Virus record (IMG/VR): IMGVR_UViG_3300045988_109082
Strand: one strand, 5' to 3'
DNA length: 63,750 nt
DNA from: a virus
Shown: piece after piece, positions 26,881 through 62,950 of the stretch
How the letters are laid out: every line of letters starts with the position of its first letter
How positions within the stretch are numbered: position 1 is the stretch's first letter
Program-made: the position numbers and the translations under genes
Notes under the pieces: model-generated
What the model saw: only the letters and a program-made list of their open reading frames with translations
The model's database searches: none
What the model was told of the DNA's origin: nothing

Positions 26881-26991
26881 GATGACTCCTTACACGTAGG
26901 GGGCGGAGCCGGTGGGAGCGTGGCGAGCGAGCATTCCAACGGGGTTAATCCAAATACAGGGGATGTTGGTCCACGAGCCACCGGCTCCTAG

Positions 26992-27062
26992 AGGCAATCC
27001 CGAGAATCGAACTCGAACCTGCGCTTTACGAGAGCGCCGCTCTTCCAATGAGCTAGAATGCC
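26992..27062 (-). tRNA. tRNA-Thr (anticodon CGT)
   Basis: Hand-folded 71-nt cloverleaf. Acceptor GGCATTC/GATTGCC with one U-U mismatch. Anticodon arm GCGCT-CTCGTAA-AGCGC. T-arm TCGAG-TTCGATT-CTCGG. No encoded CCA. Confidence 0.8.
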
Positions 27063-27188
27063 ATGCCTCCCACTAGGGGAGCGCTGTTCAGTTATCGCCG
27101 CACGGCATGGCATGAAGCCGCCGCCGACATCCGGCGATGACCCAAGAAGCCGTCACCGCCTGTAATCGCCTCTTCTTGAAGGCGTTGT

Positions 27189-27260
27189 GGTACCGGAGTG
27201 GACTCGAACCACCGACCCTATGACCGTAGCCATACGCTCTAGCCGCTGAGCTACCGGCAT
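27189..27260 (-). tRNA. tRNA-like gene with a one-nt-short anticodon loop (reads best as Arg-ACG)
   Basis: 72 nt. Good D-arm (GCTC-AGCGGCTA-GAGC) and T-arm (GGTGG-TTCGAGT-CCACT). Acceptor has an A1-C72 mismatch. The anticodon stem TATGG/TCATA encloses only 6 nt (CTACGG). Confidence 0.55.
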
Positions 27261-27262
27261 CG

Positions 27263-27333
27263 CATACCCGGTGAGAATCGAACTCACGTCACCGGTTTTG
27301 GAGACCGGTACTCTACCATTGAGCTACGGGCAT
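27263..27333 (-). tRNA. tRNA-Trp (anticodon CCA)
   Basis: 71-nt cloverleaf. Acceptor ATGCCCG/CGGGTAT. Anticodon arm CCGGT-CTCCAAA-ACCGG. T-arm GTGAG-TTCGATT-CTCAC. Confidence 0.85.
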
Positions 27334-27600
27334 ATAGGGATAGTCGAACCCCCACGACAGTCAGGGCCTTGACCAGCCTCACCGACCATCTCGCGGATGA
27401 TGCAAGATTTGCACTTGCGAACCTTTTACGGTTTACGGCCTAGCAAGCCGCCGCATTCGTCTACTCTGCCAATCATCCACGGCCACGCCCCCGGTCCAAG
27501 AAAACAACACCAATACAAAACGGAATCCCAGAGAACTCGACCTTACAAATCCTCGTAAAACTGTTTTGACGGTTCGGTTTTCAAAAAAGGCGTGGCCTAG

Positions 27601-27674
27601 TCGTGAGAGAGGGAATCGAACCCACAACACACCGGGTTTGAGCCGGCGTCCTCTACCAATTGGGATATCTCACG
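27601..27674 (-). tRNA. tRNA with anticodon CAA on a class-I (short variable loop) body
   Basis: 74 nt. Acceptor CGTGAGA/TCTCACG, A73. Anticodon arm GCCGG-CTCAAAC-CCGGT. 5-nt variable region. T-arm GTGGG-TTCGATT-CCCTC with one mismatch. Confidence 0.6.
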
Positions 27675-54068: not shown

Positions 54069-54330
54069 GAGAACCCCTCGACTGCATGGACAATTGTTCC
54101 TCGCGTTCCATCAGGTGACTGTGACGCCAAGTACGCGACTTACCCTGCTTGTGAGAGGCCTCCGCATAATCGGCCACATGGTCACGGCCAACGTCTCCCA
54201 CGACCTTCGAGGCCTCGTTCCAATCCGAGTACACGCGATCGTTCACGGCCACATACTTGTCCGCGAGATAACGGACGCAATCACCGAGATAACGGATGGC
54301 TTTGGCGATGGAGTTGAAATCAGATGCCAT
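54052..54330 (-). CDS. Hypothetical protein
   Basis: 92 aa from MASDFNSIAK behind ACGGAGGAC. The longer ORF-track version would run through the tRNA-like RNA. Confidence 0.55.
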   Translation of the reverse strand: MASDFNSIAKAIRYLGDCVRYLADKYVAVNDRVYSDWNEASKVVGDVGRDHVADYAEASHKQGKSRTWRHSHLMEREEQLSMQSRGSHVDPE

Positions 54331-54504
54331 CAGTCGGCGTCCTCCGTGTTGAGTAGTCTCATACGGTCGAATGGGGTGAGTTCCATGATTGTTTCCCTTC
54401 ACTGGGCTTGATTGTTTGGTTGTCCTTCTGCGCCGGTGCTGACACGTCCGAAAACCCTTGTATTGGTTTTCCGACGCAGGACGCGAAGGGGTTAAATTTT
54501 CTGA

Positions 54505-54592
54505 GCGCCAAGCCGGGAGTCGAACCCGGTGCACCTTGGAGAAGTCCATGACCATTGGAAGGCTTCGTAGGTGCGGCACCATGCGCTTGGCT
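54505..54592 (-). ncRNA. tRNA-like element TL1 (acceptor plus T-arm, non-cloverleaf core)
   Basis: 88 nt. Acceptor AGCCAAG/CTTGGCG (6 of 7 pairs). Perfect T-arm CCGGG-TTCGACT-CCCGG. Core is a GCA-tgg-TGC mini-hairpin plus a long interrupted arm capped by ATGGTCA. Confidence 0.5.
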
Positions 54593-54639
54593 GCCACCGG
54601 ACGAGGAAGTAAAAGAATAAAGAACCCCGCCCGGAAGAA

Positions 54640-55539
54640 TCATCTGGGTTGGATGAGGGTGTTGGAGCCCTCGGGTGTGACAATCAGCTGGTCGGCGTTC
54701 TTCAAAGCGTCGATGTAATGCTGCCGGAGCACGTTGTCGGTCAGGGAATCGTTCAGCACCTTGTTCGCGTCGGCCTCGCCCTGCGCCTTGATGCGCTTCG
54801 TCTCGGCCTCGACCTTCGCGGTCTCCTGCTCGTTCTTCGCCTTCTGCTTGGCGACCTCGGCGGCTTGGGCCTGCGCGTAGCTGTCGGTGATGGACTTCGG
54901 GTAGCGGATGTCTTGCACGGACACCTGTTCGACGGTCAGGCCGATGCTCTTCCATTTCGAGGTGAGCGCGTCCTGCACGGCCTTCGTGTACTTGCCACGG
55001 TCGGTGAGCATCGTGATCGTGTCGAACTTGCCGGAGGTTTCACGGGCCACGCTGCGCAGGTCGTTGCCGATGTAGTTCTGCGTGAACGTGGTCTGCTTGC
55101 CGTATTCCGAGTAGAGCATTTCGGCGGCGGACGGTTCGAGCGAATAGTTGACCTGAATGTCGATGTTCGCGCTGGCACCGCTACGGTCGTTGACCGTGAT
55201 CTCCTTGCCTTCCGCGCTGCCGCCGTCGTACTTGTAGTCGGTGTCCTTGAAGAAGTTGATGAGGTTGTTGCGCGTATCGTATTTGATGACCGACTGCCAC
55301 GGCGCCTTCGCATGGAAGCCCGCGTTCTCCGCATGACCGGCGACGGAGCCGCCCATGTTGCGGATGACGGCCACCTCGCCTACGTCCAGCGAGTATAGGC
55401 ATGCCGGAATCATCAACAGTGCGGCGACGATGATGGGAATGAAGCCGAAACCGGCTCCGTCGCCACCGTTGGCGAGTGCGACGGCTATCATGCCGACTCC
55501 GATGAGCAGGAGTATTACGGCGAGTATGAACCAGATCAT
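54640..55539 (-). CDS. SPFH / band-7 (prohibitin-homology) membrane protein
   Basis: 299 aa from MIWFILAVILLLIG behind GAAAGGAAC. Two N-terminal TM segments, then VGEVAVIRNMGG...FHAKAPWQSV...DIRYP and a coiled-coil AQAQAAEVAKQKAKNEQE. Confidence 0.8.
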   Translation of the reverse strand: MIWFILAVILLLIGVGMIAVALANGGDGAGFGFIPIIVAALLMIPACLYSLDVGEVAVIRNMGGSVAGHAENAGFHAKAPWQSVIKYDTRNNLINFFKDTDYKYDGGSAEGKEITVNDRSGASANIDIQVNYSLEPSAAEMLYSEYGKQTTFTQNYIGNDLRSVARETSGKFDTITMLTDRGKYTKAVQDALTSKWKSIGLTVEQVSVQDIRYPKSITDSYAQAQAAEVAKQKAKNEQETAKVEAETKRIKAQGEADANKVLNDSLTDNVLRQHYIDALKNADQLIVTPEGSNTLIQPR

Positions 55540-55766
55540 TTTTGTGTTCCTTTCGACAATGCGAACGAGAGCATGACGGGCGAACAGCACATGAAGCCTG
55601 CGAGAATGCTCCACGGGCCCGCATAGGGTTGCAGTGAGAGAATCAGGAACCCGGTCGCCGCCAACGTCAGACAAGTGATTGTCTTCGTGTTCTCATGCCG
55701 GTGCCGGCGTTCATCAGGTGAATGCTGCCAGCCGGAGCAGTGAGCCCCATACGTTTTCCTGTTCAT
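55536..55766 (-). CDS. Small two-TM membrane protein, translationally coupled to the SPFH gene
   Basis: 76 aa from MNRKTYG behind GGAAAGGA. ATGA overlap with the SPFH start. Confidence 0.55.
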   Translation of the reverse strand: MNRKTYGAHCSGWQHSPDERRHRHENTKTITCLTLAATGFLILSLQPYAGPWSILAGFMCCSPVMLSFALSKGTQK

Positions 55767-55783
55767 GACATGTCCTTTCCGCG

Positions 55784-55912
55784 TGGCCGGACTCGGATTC
55801 GAACCGAGAACGTCCTTGCCGCCACCGTGTTTCTGGTTTCTGAGAGATGGATGACGAGTCCTATGGTGTGGCGGCGATGGTGCGTGTCCAGACACCCCGA
55901 AGGGTTCCGGCC
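55784..55912 (-). ncRNA. tRNA-like element TL2 (perfect acceptor plus T-arm with ~95-nt expanded core)
   Basis: 129 nt. Acceptor GGCCGGA/TCCGGCC (7 of 7 pairs), A73. T-arm CTCGG-TTCGAAT-CCGAG. ACCC-UUCG-GGGU hairpin. 8-bp stem GCCGCCAC/GUGGCGGC with a ~42-nt loop. Confidence 0.5.
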
Positions 55913-55999
55913 GATGGTTGCCGCAGCAGATCGCAGTATGGTATTTATTTGCCTGTAGTCGATAGGTGGATAAAAAACGACCCACTGCGGCAAGACTTG

Positions 56000-56500
56000 T
56001 TAATTTCTTGACAGCACATCCGTGCAGGAGCGAAGCCTTCTCAGGTAGTCCGCTCTGCGGGCGGCTTCTCTCAGCCAGTCTTTCTTGACTTCTATCGGGT
56101 TGAGGGAGGGGCTTGAAATACTCACGTAATCGCATCCGCAGTCGTAGACCATTCCTTTGCCGACGATCTCTACAAGCGTCGGACGCTTATTGCAGATGGG
56201 GCATTCGGGAAGAGGTGCGTCCAGTGTTTTCTTAGACCGGTCCGCCAACTCATTCCAATGGTCGGCAACGTCGGCCTTATTACAGTAATTGACGCTCAAT
56301 CCGGAAGGACGCTTGGGATAATCGCAGTCGATGCACCGGCAATTCCAGAACCTGGTGCTGGCACCGCTTCCGAGCATTGAGCATCCGGCGCAGTAGACCG
56401 ATGGGGTCTTGCCGCAGATGGGGCATGGCTTGATCTCCGGTACGGGTGGCTCTTCATACAGGTTTTCCGGCTCTTCGGAACGTTTGTTGAAACCAAACAT
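56000..56500 (-). CDS. Tandem Lar-like zinc-ribbon protein
   Basis: 166 aa. CPICGK...ADHWNE and CPICNK...KKDWLREA repeats. Confidence 0.55.
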   Translation of the reverse strand: MFGFNKRSEEPENLYEEPPVPEIKPCPICGKTPSVYCAGCSMLGSGASTRFWNCRCIDCDYPKRPSGLSVNYCNKADVADHWNELADRSKKTLDAPLPECPICNKRPTLVEIVGKGMVYDCGCDYVSISSPSLNPIEVKKDWLREAARRADYLRRLRSCTDVLSRN

Positions 56501-56776: not shown

Positions 56777-56895
56777 CTGTCCACGAGGGCGATGAAGTCC
56801 TTGGCGAAGCTCCTGAGCTTGCGCATATCCGGTACGATCTCCACTCCTACCTTTCCGCTGTAAATCTCAGGGGCTTCCATGTTTTCTGTACTCAT
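56671..56895 (-). CDS. Hypothetical protein, second gene of the early operon
   Basis: 74 aa. ATGA overlap with the Cro-like stop. Its 3' 106 nt overlap the convergent gene 56579..56776. Confidence 0.5.
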   Translation of the reverse strand: MSTENMEAPEIYSGKVGVEIVPDMRKLRSFAKDFIALVDSYWPEETGSPLATQSRQTGNCDSPTPDMSSTSAPQ

Positions 56896-57161
56896 GCTGT
56901 TACCTCCAAGTCAGGCGTCCCAGTGCCGAAGAACTTCTCATGCATGTCCACTGGAATGGTGAGCAGTTCCTCGAAACTGACTCCGAGCGCTTCGCAGATC
57001 ATGTCCAGTTCATCGACTTTGAAGGCCGGTTGGCCGGCGAGTCGGCGGGAGAGTTTGCTTACATCCCATCCGAGATTCGCCGCAAGCCATCGAAGGCTTT
57101 TCTGTGCGATGAAGAGACGGTATCGAATACCGGCTGCTGTTAGTTTCTGTGTGCTGCTCAT
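56892..57161 (-). CDS. Cro-like HTH regulator, first gene of the early operon
   Basis: 89 aa from MSSTQKLT. KSLRWLAANLGWDVSKLSRRLAG is HTH-like. Divergent from the CI-like gene. Confidence 0.7.
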   Translation of the reverse strand: MSSTQKLTAAGIRYRLFIAQKSLRWLAANLGWDVSKLSRRLAGQPAFKVDELDMICEALGVSFEELLTIPVDMHEKFFGTGTPDLEVTA

Positions 57162-57170
57162 GTCTATTAA

Positions 57171-57226
57171 CTTAGCATATGCCAAGTTTCTGTCAAGACT
57201 AGACACGCCGTATCGCATATGCTAAG
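57171..57226. promoter_or_regulatory. Genetic-switch operators: inverted 12-mers CTTAGCATATGC and GCATATGCTAAG
   Basis: Copies at 57171-57182 and 57215-57226 within the 73-bp divergent intergenic region. Each contains the palindrome GCATATGC. Confidence 0.65.
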
Positions 57227-58911: not shown

Positions 58912-59415
58912 TCAGGTGTGTTTCCTAGTGGAGGGCCATACCTCATGGTTCGGGTCCCACCAGAGAATGTGAAACTCATTGCCTACAAGGAAACCGTACA
59001 GGCGTTCGGTTCCGCCCAAGCGGAACCGGGCCAACGCATCGCCTTCGCGTTCATAGTATTTCGCCAGCCGGTCCTGTGGCGTCTGGTTGGGGCATTGGGT
59101 GAAATCAGGGTAGCAGGTGAACGCCTGATATGAGGGGCTAATGATCTCGCCCACCGTCGCCTTTTCGAAGTCACGCATCTTCAACAGCAGCAGTCGATGC
59201 TCCTCGTCGCTCATGTGCGCGAGCGACCATGGACAGTCGGCCTCAAGGTCAACGCAGTCGAAACGGAATACGATGCGACGGTTCACGGAATCCTTGGGAA
59301 TCTCCGTGGCGGATTCGGGGACATGATAGCTTTTCGCCACGTGATGCGCGGGCACACGTTTTGAAGAGCTCGGGGCTTTGGCCTTGATGCTCTTGGTTTT
59401 GCTGCGGTGGCCCAC
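58912..59415 (-). CDS. Unknown protein coupled to the Panacea antitoxin (candidate toxin)
   Basis: 167 aa, GTG start sharing one nt with the upstream TAG. Basic N-terminus. No motif recognised. Confidence 0.6.
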   Translation of the reverse strand: MGHRSKTKSIKAKAPSSSKRVPAHHVAKSYHVPESATEIPKDSVNRRIVFRFDCVDLEADCPWSLAHMSDEEHRLLLLKMRDFEKATVGEIISPSYQAFTCYPDFTQCPNQTPQDRLAKYYEREGDALARFRLGGTERLYGFLVGNEFHILWWDPNHEVWPSTRKHT

Positions 59416-59852
59416 TAGTCGGTAAGGCTCCCATAGTATTCGGCCATGGCCGCTTCAGTTATCTCGGTGTTGCAGATGGCTCCCTGCGGGAGATCGCCTC
59501 GCGCATCCCTCCACGGGCGTTCGCTGTGGGTAAGCTCGCTGAGCTGGTAGGCTCCCATTTTCCCGTAGGCATTCAACACCGCGTCTATGGTGCTGGTGCC
59601 GTCTTCGTCTATGTTCGACGGGTCGCCGTGAATATCGCCGCGCGTGATCTTGAACATGCCCTTGTGCGCATGGTATAGGTCGGGGCACACCGGGCCGTTG
59701 GCCCATGCCTCGAATCGCTCGGGGAACAGACGCCGTTCATCCCATACGAGGGACCATGCCTGTGAATAGTAGCAGAGCTTTTCCAGCTTCATGGTGGTCA
59801 TGACGCCGAGCTTGTCCAGCACGTAAGCGGCCACGTCGAATATGCTTGTCAT
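59415..59852 (-). CDS. Panacea-domain (DUF4065, SocA/GepA-like) antitoxin
   Basis: 145 aa. TTMKLEKLCYYSQAWSLVWDERRLFPERFEAWANGPVCPDLY matches the DUF4065 core pattern. Confidence 0.75.
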   Translation of the reverse strand: MTSIFDVAAYVLDKLGVMTTMKLEKLCYYSQAWSLVWDERRLFPERFEAWANGPVCPDLYHAHKGMFKITRGDIHGDPSNIDEDGTSTIDAVLNAYGKMGAYQLSELTHSERPWRDARGDLPQGAICNTEITEAAMAEYYGSLTD

Positions 59853-59942: not shown

Positions 59943-61334
59943 TCACGCCTTCCATTCGATCTGCTTCAGGCCAAGCCCGTCGCTTATCGTCTCCATGCCT
60001 CGCATCAAATCCTCCACCGGCACAGTGCGGTAATGCTCGCTCATGGCTATGCTCGAATGGCCGACGATGCGTTGGATGATGCCGGGATCAACCTTCATGT
60101 GGAACAGGAGCGATACGACGGAATTGCGGCATTCATGCCCGTACCGGTTCTCGTAGTCGGGTATGCCCGCCCTGCGCATGAGGTCGCGGAAACCGGCCCT
60201 GTCATCCAACGCGGCCAACGGCATACCCTCGCGCGTCCTGAATATCAGGTTATACGGGTTCGGGATGATATTCTCCGTGGCCTCCAGATACCGGTGCACG
60301 ACGGTGCCCAACTGGGGGATTATCGGCACAACCTTGCCTCTCGCGGACTTCGGCGGCGTCAAAGCGTACCCCTTGCACAGGTGTATCATGTCGTATCCGT
60401 CCGGCACCCTCCACCGGTATCGGGGACAGCTCGAAGGCCGTTTGAAGCCGCACGGGTATCTTCCGTCCCTGCCGGGCTCCCCACACCCATGCTCCTTGTC
60501 GAGGCTTTCCAGTTTCCAGTTCACCGTGTAGGTGCCTATCCATATCTCGCCGCTGTCCGGGGTTTCCAACGTCTTGTCCCGCCACAGGTCGAGATCGTCC
60601 AACGTGGCTCCCAGTATCTCCCCCTGCCTCATGCCGGTGAGCAGACGCCACCATTGGCGTGCCCCCAGAAACAGGTCGTCGGAGGACGCTTCGAGCATGT
60701 CCTGCATCTGCTCCACGGTGAACGCCTTGCGGTCCTGCGTGCCGCTGCGCCTGTCCGCCGACACGGCCACGGGCCCGTTGATGGTGCGCCGGTCCCCGGC
60801 CAATCCCATGTCCCTGCGTTTCGGCCTTGCCGCGCTGGTGACCGGACTGGTGGGTATCAGCCGGTCGGCCACCGCCGCCTTGAATATCTGGTTAAGGATG
60901 TTGTAGAAGCCAAGCTGCCGGTTGTACGAGCATGGGGTGCCGTCGAGGTTGCGCATGTTGGCTATCATGCGCTGCACCGCCGAGGCGGTCACTTCGCCCA
61001 GCTTCTCGTTCGCGTACTTGCACAGGTGCACGCTTATGAGGCTCGCGTAGTTGTTGATGGACTTGGGTTTCAGGTCGCGTCGTTTCAGCTCGAACCAGCG
61101 TTCCGCGTACTCGCCGAGCCGGGTGGCGCGGTCTACGCCCATGCCCCATTCGGTTTTCTCCTTGAGGGCTTCGGCTATTTTCCTGTCGCATTCCTTGTAG
61201 GTCTTGGCGGACACCCATCGGCCGTCCACCTTGGCCTGCCAGTTCACGTATGTCTTTACCGTGCCGTCCTTGAGTGTTTTCCGCTGCTCGTGGCGGATGG
61301 GGTAGACCGCTCCGGTTTTCCTTATCCTAGGCAT
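59943..61334 (-). CDS. int: Tyrosine integrase
   Basis: 463 aa. LTGMRQGEILG, HECRNS, IVGHSSIAMSEHY give the R...HxxR...H...Y pattern. Confidence 0.9.
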   Translation of the reverse strand: MPRIRKTGAVYPIRHEQRKTLKDGTVKTYVNWQAKVDGRWVSAKTYKECDRKIAEALKEKTEWGMGVDRATRLGEYAERWFELKRRDLKPKSINNYASLISVHLCKYANEKLGEVTASAVQRMIANMRNLDGTPCSYNRQLGFYNILNQIFKAAVADRLIPTSPVTSAARPKRRDMGLAGDRRTINGPVAVSADRRSGTQDRKAFTVEQMQDMLEASSDDLFLGARQWWRLLTGMRQGEILGATLDDLDLWRDKTLETPDSGEIWIGTYTVNWKLESLDKEHGCGEPGRDGRYPCGFKRPSSCPRYRWRVPDGYDMIHLCKGYALTPPKSARGKVVPIIPQLGTVVHRYLEATENIIPNPYNLIFRTREGMPLAALDDRAGFRDLMRRAGIPDYENRYGHECRNSVVSLLFHMKVDPGIIQRIVGHSSIAMSEHYRTVPVEDLMRGMETISDGLGLKQIEWKA

Positions 61335-62455: not shown

Positions 62456-62950
62456 ATGACCCTACTGTGGCAGGATGCGCGCCGCAAAGCGCAAGAAACC
62501 CTTGACAATTACTGGGACCACTCCTATCCGGTCAAGATCGTGAGCATATGCAAGGCCATGGGTGTCACGCCCTACACCGGTGAGCTTCCCGAAGGTGTCA
62601 GCGGCATGATAGTCAAGGAACACAGCAGCGAGCCCCGAGCCTACACGGAACGCACCGAACCACAGACAAGACGCAGGTTCACGCTCGCACACGAACTGGG
62701 GCATTTCGTGGAACGAGTCACCATAGCGCAGGACAACGATTTCGCTTTCATGGACAAACGTTCCGACGATTACGACATCCACGAATTCTACGCGGACGAG
62801 TTCGCCGGTGCGCTGCTCATGCCCGAACACGATTTCATCCAGAAAGTCAAGAACGATGGGATGATCGCGGCCGCAGCATATTTCGGCGTCTCGCTGGCCG
62901 CGGTTCGAAAACGCATGGAACGGTTGCGCAAGCACGGGGCCGACATCTGA
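62456..62950 (+). CDS. ImmA/IrrE-family metallopeptidase (second copy)
   Basis: 164 aa. Motifs FTLAHELGHFV and EFYADEFAGALLMP. Confidence 0.75.
   Translation: MTLLWQDARRKAQETLDNYWDHSYPVKIVSICKAMGVTPYTGELPEGVSGMIVKEHSSEPRAYTERTEPQTRRRFTLAHELGHFVERVTIAQDNDFAFMDKRSDDYDIHEFYADEFAGALLMPEHDFIQKVKNDGMIAAAAYFGVSLAAVRKRMERLRKHGADI

Follow-up and report, generated by a model that had tools for sequence, protein, structure and literature searches.

Why does a tRNA-like sequence stand directly behind an SPFH gene in the early region of the virus recorded as IMGVR_UViG_3300045988_109082? The element in question, TL1, occupies positions 54505-54592 on the minus strand of this 63,750 nt viral sequence (hereafter the window, meaning the whole stretch of DNA analysed), and it had been noticed in an initial annotation made from the letters alone. 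Our comparisons indicate that TL1 is a genuine structured tRNA-like RNA conserved across diverged lineages, and that its family is carried, in hundreds of contigs, by temperate phages and prophages of Bifidobacterium-type hosts. This family is uncatalogued, being absent from Rfam 15 and invisible to tRNA finders. Concerning its role, we favour, with about even confidence, a punctuation and 3'-end-processing module in an early operon transcript, and we infer that this module also releases a small RNA resembling the tRNA-like domain (TLD) of tmRNA. Below, we document the structure, conservation, genomic position and partner genes of the TL1 family and then weigh this reading against its alternatives.

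The minus strand from 54592 to 54505 reads AGCCAAGCGCATGGTGCCGCACCTACGAAGCCTTCCAATGGTCATGGACTTCTCCAAGGTGCACCGGGTTCGACTCCCGGCTTGGCGC, and its parts are the following:

54592, minus strand, the A at position -1 of TL1
54591-54586, minus strand, 5' strand of the acceptor, GCCAAG
54584-54576, minus strand, mini D-hairpin, GCATGGTGC
54574-54531, minus strand, long arm, with the apical loop ATGGTCA at 54555-54549
54529-54513, minus strand, T arm, CCGGG-TTCGACT-CCCGG
54512-54507, minus strand, 3' strand of the acceptor, CTTGGC
54506 and 54505, minus strand, G73 and C74

Direct reading and the minimum free energy (MFE) fold both recover the 88-nt tRNA-like element that the initial annotation had described on this strand, with its perfect T arm, the mini hairpin GCA-TGG-TGC and a long arm interrupted as GCACCT/AGGTGC, GAAG/CTTC and TCCA/TGGA and capped by the loop ATGGTCA. 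The acceptor-like stem, GCCAAG/CTTGGC, is also as claimed, with six base pairs and an A × G at what was then counted as the mismatched position 1 × 72. The MFE fold itself shows another register, in which the acceptor has 7 bp (GCCAAGC/GCTTGGC) and the T stem 4 bp; it was rejected because its seventh pair turns into C × C in C/D variants and the T stem of 5 bp shows covariation. The single-sequence energy is only mildly unusual (-34.2 kcal/mol, z = -1.85), and a crude scan shows that a loose pattern of T arm plus acceptor also turns up by chance in coding regions of the window. Therefore, the TL1 sequence taken alone is weak evidence, and the case for a functional RNA depends on its relatives.

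These were collected with the SPFH protein as query, which retrieved related loci from 189 viral contigs. Among the closest of them (SPFH identity of at least 98%; 58 loci representing 29 distinct sequences), none of the 88 columns of TL1 is variable, compared with 4.3% of the columns in the 3' end of the SPFH coding sequence, 6.2% in the 48-nt spacer, 25.7% in the 70 nt that follow TL1 and 55% farther out. This invariance points to purifying selection. Diverged homologues were reached through L099, a locus in which a near-identical TL1 stands behind a diverged small membrane-protein gene and the SPFH gene is absent. A search with the membrane protein of L099 led to further cassettes, where diverged TL1 variants again lie directly behind the membrane-protein gene. 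Thus, TL1 variants are present in homologous cassettes, the comparison on which the initial annotation had made its proposal depend, and their helices are kept although the letters change. The acceptor GCCAAG/CTTGGC becomes GCCGGT/ACCGGC and GGGCGG/CCGTCC, the T stem passes from CCGGG/CCCGG to GCGAG/CTCGC, GCGGG/CCCGC and CCCGG/CCGGG, and the base of the long arm from GCACCT/AGGTGC to GCAGCC/GACTGC and CCCGGCC/GGCCGGG.

In a MAFFT alignment of 10 variants that was uninformed by structure, the acceptor is 100% paired with five of its six pairs changed on both sides, and the T stem is 96% paired with three of five pairs so changed. The same covariation pattern is seen in the alignments fitted to a covariance model (CM). 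Covariation statistics over 36 variants give 86.8% of paired cells, against 62.7% in shuffles (0/500 shuffles were as high), and controls with slid partners pair in only 30-48%. Changes on both sides affect 21 of the 27 pairs overall, including five of six in the acceptor helix, which remains 100% paired, four of five in the T stem and five of six at the base of the long arm. RNAalifold independently recovers the acceptor, the long-arm base, the apical stem and the T stem, with 16/19 pairs compensated. Since TL1 is invariant among close relatives and its helices are maintained by compensatory changes in diverged homologues, it is more than a chance resemblance.

A covariance model built from 10 TL1 variants (R1) extends this picture to sequences on which it was not trained. 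In the window, TL1 is its sole strong match (96.7 bits), the T arm of the second tRNA-like element, TL2, scoring 17.2 bits and the true tRNAs about 13. Elsewhere, members outside the training set score 29-45 bits with R1 (E about 1e-4 to 2e-7). They lie on the gene strand without exception and comprise all the '75%' SPFH loci together with Bifidobacterium olomucense and related loci; they occupy the same genomic position in about 100 more loci. At least 231 copies of the family were counted in the loci fetched. The wider collection was scanned with subtype patterns rather than with one whole-family pattern, and a subtype pattern matches at least 120 further viral contigs. R1 is usable for annotation of the TL1 family.

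The shared architecture is compact (85-92 nt in total). Over 35 distinct sequences, the first paired position is always G+1-C72, and the 5-bp T stem always closes with G53-C61; the canonical T loop UUCGAYU and the purine followed by C on the 3' side of the acceptor (R73-C74) are invariant or nearly so. No pairing is seen between the position-73 purine and the nucleotide that precedes the invariant G (A × G, A × A, G × A and C × A occur), so the simplest numbering makes this G +1, the purine 73 and the following C 74, with an acceptor of 6 bp. The own tRNA genes of the phage likewise lack an encoded CCA. After the 5' strand of the acceptor come, in order, the mini hairpin, one linker nucleotide, a long irregular helix of about 14-17 bp, one or two nucleotides and the T stem. 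The mini hairpin, with a stem of 2-3 bp, has the form GC-N(3-6)-GC, its loop always containing GG or GT, which fits a mimic of G18-G19 of the D loop. An anticodon arm is absent, a single long helix leaving the core beside the T arm, and therefore TL1 cannot decode.

The apical loop of this helix, of 4-10 nt, is not conserved: ATGGTCA, ATTGC, TTCA, GGTCATGA, GTGTCATGTA and CAGGTGG are found, among others. For this reason, the threonine-type triplets that the initial annotation had seen in the loops of TL1 and TL2 must be considered a coincidence, a possibility that it had itself raised. A link of both elements to the tRNA-Thr(CGU) of the phage was also tried and rejected, that tRNA sharing with TL2 the loop letters CUCGU only and not the stem. 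As a separate observation, the pentamer UCAUG recurs in many otherwise differing apical loops (AAUGGUCAUGG, UUCAUGG, GGGUCAUGA and GUGUCAUGUA; window 54549-54559, L268, L282 and L262), and some of these can be read as U33-CAU-R37, a Met-type anticodon loop.

The largest subfamily (E-type) is formed by the two most frequent acceptors, GGGCGG/CCGTCC and GGGCCG/CGGTCC, which together account for 148/231 copies and present G1-C72, G2-C71, G3·U70 and A73-C74. Together, G3·U70 and A73 make up the alanine identity set, on which tmRNA also relies. The TL1 of the window has instead C3-G70 with G73, and its relatives in the A-D type cassettes C3-G70 with either G73 or A73. Within the long arm of E-type copies (for example L268 2962-3049 and L045 3780-3867), a conserved symmetric internal loop, GAGAU/GCAAA, lies between two covarying stems; it may be a protein-binding motif, and the window variant lacks it.

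From tRNA, TL1 retains the acceptor helix, the T stem with G53-C61 and the UUCRANY loop. Nevertheless, ARAGORN does not call it as a tRNA and finds no tmRNA, the tRNA model RF00005 (threshold 29 bits) gives no match to TL1 even at E<=10 on a 121-nt slice, and the Rfam tmRNA models do not match the family. The best Rfam match is tRNA-Sec (RF01852; 18.4 bits for TL1 and 12.5 for an E-type member, against a threshold of 47), followed by mascRNA (RF01684; 15.1 bits against 42.5, covering the T arm and acceptor only) and the Deinococcus Y RNA (13.8 bits against 80). The T arm is the basis of all these sub-threshold matches. As TL1 does not attain the threshold of any Rfam 15 family, assignment to an ordinary family, as the initial annotation had considered, does not account for the element; membership in tRNA, tRNA-Sec, tmRNA, Y RNA and mascRNA was rejected on the ARAGORN and Rfam scores.

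The likenesses to some of these families are nonetheless informative. With tRNA-Sec and allo-tRNA, TL1 shares a short D stem and a 3-4-nt loop containing GG, but it has neither the pairing of an anticodon arm with a variable arm, nor a UCA anticodon, nor the 8/5 or 9/4 geometry of tRNA-Sec. YrlA RNAs, bacterial Y RNAs with a tRNA-like module reportedly described by Chen et al. in 2014 and said to occur also in phages, are non-decoding RNAs that mimic T arm, D arm and acceptor; however, the ends of YrlA form the Ro-binding stem and its acceptor mimic is loop-closed, whereas the ends of TL1 form the acceptor. No Ro/Rsr gene was found among the TL1 neighbours examined (SPFH, small membrane protein, zinc-finger protein, PD-(D/E)XK nuclease and ERF), the rest of the window not having been scanned for a TROVE domain. 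Phage T4 produces species 1 and 2 (bands C/D), stable small RNAs without an assigned function whose processing accompanies that of tRNAs. They resemble TL1 as phage-encoded small RNAs with acceptor-like ends, but they lie inside a tRNA gene cluster, whereas TL1 is tied to membrane-protein genes. To our knowledge, few bacterial or phage tRNA mimics are known beyond true tRNAs, tmRNA and Y RNAs. A 2023 survey (PMC10690425) lists 8,495 unnamed candidate RNAs from IMG/VR, including 'tRNA-like' ones; an overlap of the TL1 family with those candidates is possible, and the literature searches turned up no description of the TL1 element.

The genomic surroundings of TL1 in the window consist of the following features:

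55783-55912, minus strand, TL2, a second and different tRNA-like element
55536-55766, minus strand, gene (open reading frame, ORF) for a 76-aa small membrane protein, MNRKTYGAHCSG...
54640-55539, minus strand, SPFH/Band-7 gene, 299 aa (Pfam Band_7, 7e-29)
54597-54634, minus strand, hairpin H0, CCGGGCGGGG/CCTCGTCCGG, with an 18-nt pyrimidine-rich loop (from the fold)
54445-54476, minus strand, hairpin H2, CGTCGGAAAACC...GGTTTTCGGACG, 28 nt downstream of TL1 (from the fold)

The SPFH gene overlaps the membrane-protein gene through ATGA, and TL1 starts 47 nt after the SPFH stop codon (54640-54642). This small-membrane-protein/SPFH cassette is indeed bracketed by TL1 and TL2. It belongs to a leftward early operon, in which a cro-like gene (56892-57218) and a zinc-finger gene come first and PD-(D/E)XK nuclease and ERF genes follow the cassette, and TL1 itself is 27 kb from the phage tRNA cluster. 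The SPFH protein has its best genomic homologues in prophage regions of Bifidobacterium, at 87% and 74% identity, as well as in Collinsella, which makes a Bifidobacterium-type host likely for this phage. Megablast, blastn and tblastn searches of annotated phages and plasmids reveal no relative of the window phage, SPFH reaching at most 40% identity.

Across the family, the orientation of the element always matches that of the genes, and its location is intergenic. A hydrophobic small ORF (median 80 aa) ends 47-285 nt upstream of it in 64 of the 78 non-redundant contexts; in 11/78, SPFH is the upstream gene, preceded by the membrane-protein gene, and the remaining 3/78 are ambiguous, so that one or the other stands just upstream in 75/78. 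Homologues of the 76-aa protein itself lie directly upstream of TL1-type elements in L250-L273. As a hydrophobic ORF is directly upstream in 64/78 contexts, the constant partner of TL1 is the small membrane-protein gene. Comparison of cassettes with and without SPFH, which the initial annotation had proposed, dissolves the link of TL1 with that gene: cassettes devoid of SPFH (L099, L250-L267) retain TL1, and in the '75%' SPFH loci the element is about 480 nt past SPFH, behind one or two further small membrane-protein genes. SPFH is thus optional cargo, inserted between the membrane-protein gene and TL1, as in the window, or placed upstream of that gene. The genes after the element vary, being HTH_17/AlpA-like in some loci and otherwise unknown proteins or tiny ORFs.

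The partner membrane proteins have no Pfam, PHROG or PADLOC match. Those of the window (55536-55766) and of L250-L273 share the N-terminal motif M(M)N-x-K/R-x-YG-x-H-x-SG, and many partners also carry a W..H-x-x-C-x-H/Y-P-x-G-N-G motif. Separately, the contig L241, which was binned as Roseburia, carries an array of seven tRNAs (1833-2398) at about 600 nt upstream of an SPFH gene with 59% identity.

TL2 has a 7-bp acceptor (GGCCGGA/TCCGGCC), A73-C74, the T arm CTCGG-TTCGAAT-CCGAG and a variable insert of 70-85 nt, and it ends 16 nt before the start codon of the small membrane-protein gene. Comparison of the window with L250 and L251 (copies upstream of position 2501) shows full compensation in the acceptor, the D stem and the T stem of TL2. 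Some variants have a real D-arm (CCCT-TGGCGATT-AGGG; CCCCAC-GCCGACTA-GTGGGG), and some copies a non-canonical T loop, UCCGAAU. TL2 is confined to A-D type cassettes and represents a tRNA-like family separate from TL1; R1 matches only its T arm.

Two hairpins frame TL1. H0 starts right behind the stop codon of SPFH and reaches to 5 nt before G+1, and a strong GC-rich hairpin devoid of a U-tract ends 0-5 nt before G+1 in 16/16 representative variants, with stem sequences that are unrelated to one another. H0 is the candidate protective 3' end of the upstream mRNA. On the other side, the hairpin announced by the initial annotation does exist (H2), although not as a clean 9-bp stem CGGAAAACC/GGUUUUCCG: its sequence CGTC-G-GAAAACC/GGTTTTC-G-GACG gives 7 contiguous bp, an internal G × G mismatch and 4 bp more. 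Relatives show compensating changes in this stem (GGAAAACC/GGTTTTCC, GGAAACC/GGTTTCC and GAAACC/GGTTTC), and a hairpin follows the element in most of the 16 variants, though not in all. Neither H0 nor H2 has a U-tract, no terminator-like site was detected in 54300-56200, and a scan of the cassette detected no sigma-70 promoter or canonical terminator.

This anatomy suggests how TL1 could act. The early transcript would read through TL1, and host RNase P would cut on the 5' side of G+1, leaving the upstream membrane-protein/SPFH mRNA with an H0 end shielded from 3' exonucleases. Trimming of the 3' side and completion of CCA would then free a stable RNA of about 86 nt, and the downstream early genes would thereby be split from the cassette mRNA. 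In A-D cassettes, TL2 could act likewise at the 5' side, so that the cassette mRNA would be excised as a unit. The processing by RNase P and CCA addition, the stabilisation of the mRNA and any activity of the released RNA are inferred rather than shown. The idea of a processed transcript unit, raised in the initial annotation, is consistent with an element that is on the same strand, intergenic and abutted at its 5' end by a hairpin in all 16 variants.

Two known arrangements resemble this one. In MALAT1/mascRNA, an RNase P cut makes the 3' end of the upstream RNA and frees a small CCA-tailed tRNA-like RNA; in the MALAT1/MEN-beta module, as in TL1 (0-5 nt before G+1), the tRNA-like structure is directly 3' of a stable 3'-end structure, which in the TL1 family is a hairpin. 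The likeness is one of anatomy only, the processing here being conjectural, and mascRNA differs in being eukaryotic and nuclear, in having a triple helix as protector and in keeping a small anticodon-like arm. The tRNA punctuation of mitochondria, or of bacterial tRNA-mRNA co-transcripts such as tufB or secG-leuU, likewise places tRNA-shaped elements on the same strand between coding regions, where RNase P and 3' processing could excise them and so separate the mRNAs; in contrast to TL1, those tRNAs decode. As a processing module, TL1 would give phages a counterpart to MALAT1/mascRNA and to mitochondrial punctuation, and it would explain how an early-operon cassette acquires mRNA ends of its own in a host group with scarce canonical terminators. 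The family is abundant in gut Bifidobacterium-type phages and combines strong covariation with a clear architecture and a fixed position, and viral tRNA mimicry is a recurring route into the host RNA-processing and translation machinery.

Several considerations weigh against this reading and must be kept in mind. RNase P cleavage of the TL1 transcript is an assumption. An RNase P site needs only a minihelix of acceptor and T arm, and the conservation of the long arm (in the largest subfamily also of the GAGAU/GCAAA loop and G3·U70) suggests constraints beyond those of a cut site. The stack of acceptor and T stem measures 11 bp (6+5), or 12 only when the 1 × 72 mismatch is counted, which is non-canonical for the measuring of the substrate. 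The hairpin that abuts the 5' side could hinder RNase P, although the own tRNAs of the phage abut each other with 0 spacing. Finally, as the sequences are related, the shuffle statistics overstate their independence, the really independent events amounting to about 5 acceptor types and about 9 T-stem types, and the CM-fitted alignments (A3 and A4) are biased towards the structure behind the model.

A cut site alone would not require the conservation seen in the long arm and the D mimic, and for this reason the released RNA may have a role of its own. In the most interesting form of this idea, which we consider unlikely as the primary function, the RNA is itself the point, as an anticodon-less tRNA mimic that acts in trans and is hypothetically charged (with alanine in the largest subfamily). 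It could engage EF-Tu, SmpB and stalled ribosomes like a message-less TLD, bind or titrate AlaRS, or feed aminoacyl-tRNA-dependent envelope enzymes. Such a role is compatible with RNase P processing and would differ from the punctuation module only in purpose. The whole fold is conserved, including the long arm and its internal loop, rather than the minihelix alone, and an acceptor, a reduced D element and a long helix by the T arm follow the plan of the tmRNA TLD, which crystal structures of SmpB with the TLD, by Gutmann in 2003 and Bessho in 2007, are said to show. Indeed, TL1 shares with that domain an acceptor helix with a canonical T arm, a short GG-bearing D element and the lack of an anticodon arm, a long helix leaving the core beside the T arm; in the largest subfamily alone, G3·U70 with A73 is added. 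In these 148/231 copies, the G·U is kept while pair 5-68 flips from G-C to C-G and nearly all T-stem positions change. However, the TL1 of the window and its A-D relatives lack the alanine set (C3-G70), the G·U falls at 3·70 only if G+1 is the mature 5' end, and all copies that have it belong to a single clade whose acceptor hardly varies, so that common descent may explain its retention. Moreover, the TL1 acceptor has 6 bp and not 7, its long helix is loop-closed, the mRNA-like domain, resume codon, tag reading frame and pseudoknots of tmRNA are absent, and the Rfam tmRNA models and the tmRNA search of ARAGORN find nothing. Phage-encoded tmRNAs are known. We hold it rather improbable that TL1 RNA is specifically a minimal message-less TLD mimic, excised by RNase P, completed with CCA, aminoacylated (with alanine in copies that have G3·U70 and A73) and engaging SmpB/EF-Tu or AlaRS. 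If so, the phage could use it to tune or shut off host ribosome rescue, or to draw away charged alanine, early in infection or during lysogeny, and the window variant, without G3·U70, would be a derived form that binds its partner without alanine charging. More generally, if the released RNA were charged or bound to SmpB, phages would have a novel means of interfering with translation quality control.

That TL1 is a cis-regulatory RNA, acting with H0 and H2 as a terminator or antiterminator or serving as a 5'-UTR element of the next early gene, would suit the hairpins on its two sides, its place in an early operon just downstream of a cI/cro-like switch, and L282, where the ribosome-binding site of the next gene comes within about 30 nt; we nevertheless judge it improbable, as no U-tract terminators were detected in 54300-56200, the genes that follow are not the same in all variants, some variants lack a hairpin after the element, and the T loop, G53-C61 and R73-C74 are hard to explain for RNA polymerase or ribosome binding. 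The strict linkage to small hydrophobic ORFs (52-189 aa), at a prophage site beside the immunity region that is typical of exclusion and abortive-infection genes, might instead recall an RNA antitoxin of a toxic small membrane peptide, in a type I or III toxin-antitoxin system. This is quite improbable for an element that lies downstream on the same strand rather than antisense, has no ToxI-like repeat structure, shows no obvious complementarity to the gene start region (as inspected by eye only) and bears tRNA-type invariants that would not be expected. We see very little likelihood in a site acting at the DNA level (an attP or recombination site, a cassette boundary used by an integrase, or a linker for modular exchange), even though TL1 is always at the 3' edge of the cassette and mosaic breakpoints are nearby (the diverged cassette of L099 with its near-identical TL1 block; the recombinant L039). 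The tyrosine integrase (59943-61334) is encoded at a distance of 5.4 kb, TL1 is not a repeat of TL2, and the breakpoints do not coincide with the element ends; the preservation of helices by compensatory changes indicates selection on the RNA rather than on a DNA site. Further, the 21-mer GGGTTCGACTCCCGGCTTGGC, which comprises the T arm and the 3' side of the acceptor, is absent from 185,579 representative genomes, so TL1 is not a copy of a host tRNA 3' end, and an attP of that kind was rejected on these grounds together with the distance of the integrase. The mobile cassette boundary that the initial annotation had offered as its other option finds no shared TL1/TL2 repeat, no nearby integrase, no match for the 3' half of the element in those genomes and no mosaic junction at its ends. 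Finally, a decaying tRNA pseudogene without present function, derived from a phage tRNA array, or a chance resemblance, might be suggested by the SPFH genes that can adjoin tRNA arrays (L241), by the modest fold z-score and by the loose patterns found by chance in the window, but it is scarcely credible and effectively refuted by the covariation: all helices, including the long arm foreign to tRNA, are kept by compensatory change across diverged lineages, 0/88 columns vary among close relatives, and more than 230 copies share one conserved genomic position.

Other features of these loci were observed alongside. L099 joins a diverged TL2 and membrane-protein gene to its near-identical TL1 block, and L039 has a hybrid SPFH gene of the 100% and 75% types, with TL1 present and TL2 absent. 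In the window, a protein with a SocA/Panacea antitoxin domain (59415-59852, minus strand) adjoins the integrase, and a protein with an IrrE/M78 peptidase domain (62456-62950, plus strand) is encoded near the right end. ARAGORN reports five tRNAs at 26991-27674, four of which are also found at Rfam gathering thresholds. One tRNA of this region is odd (27187-27261, minus strand; 'tRNA-???' with a 2-nt anticodon in ARAGORN, 42 bits with Rfam tRNA) and abuts tRNA-Trp with zero spacing. A class-II-like phage tRNA with the anticodon UGA and a D arm resembling those of Sec and allo-tRNAs (GAGCA-UGG-UGCUC) is present in L084, L091 and L096; this UGA-anticodon tRNA, which is unrelated to TL1, is common elsewhere, with about 40 other viral loci besides these three.

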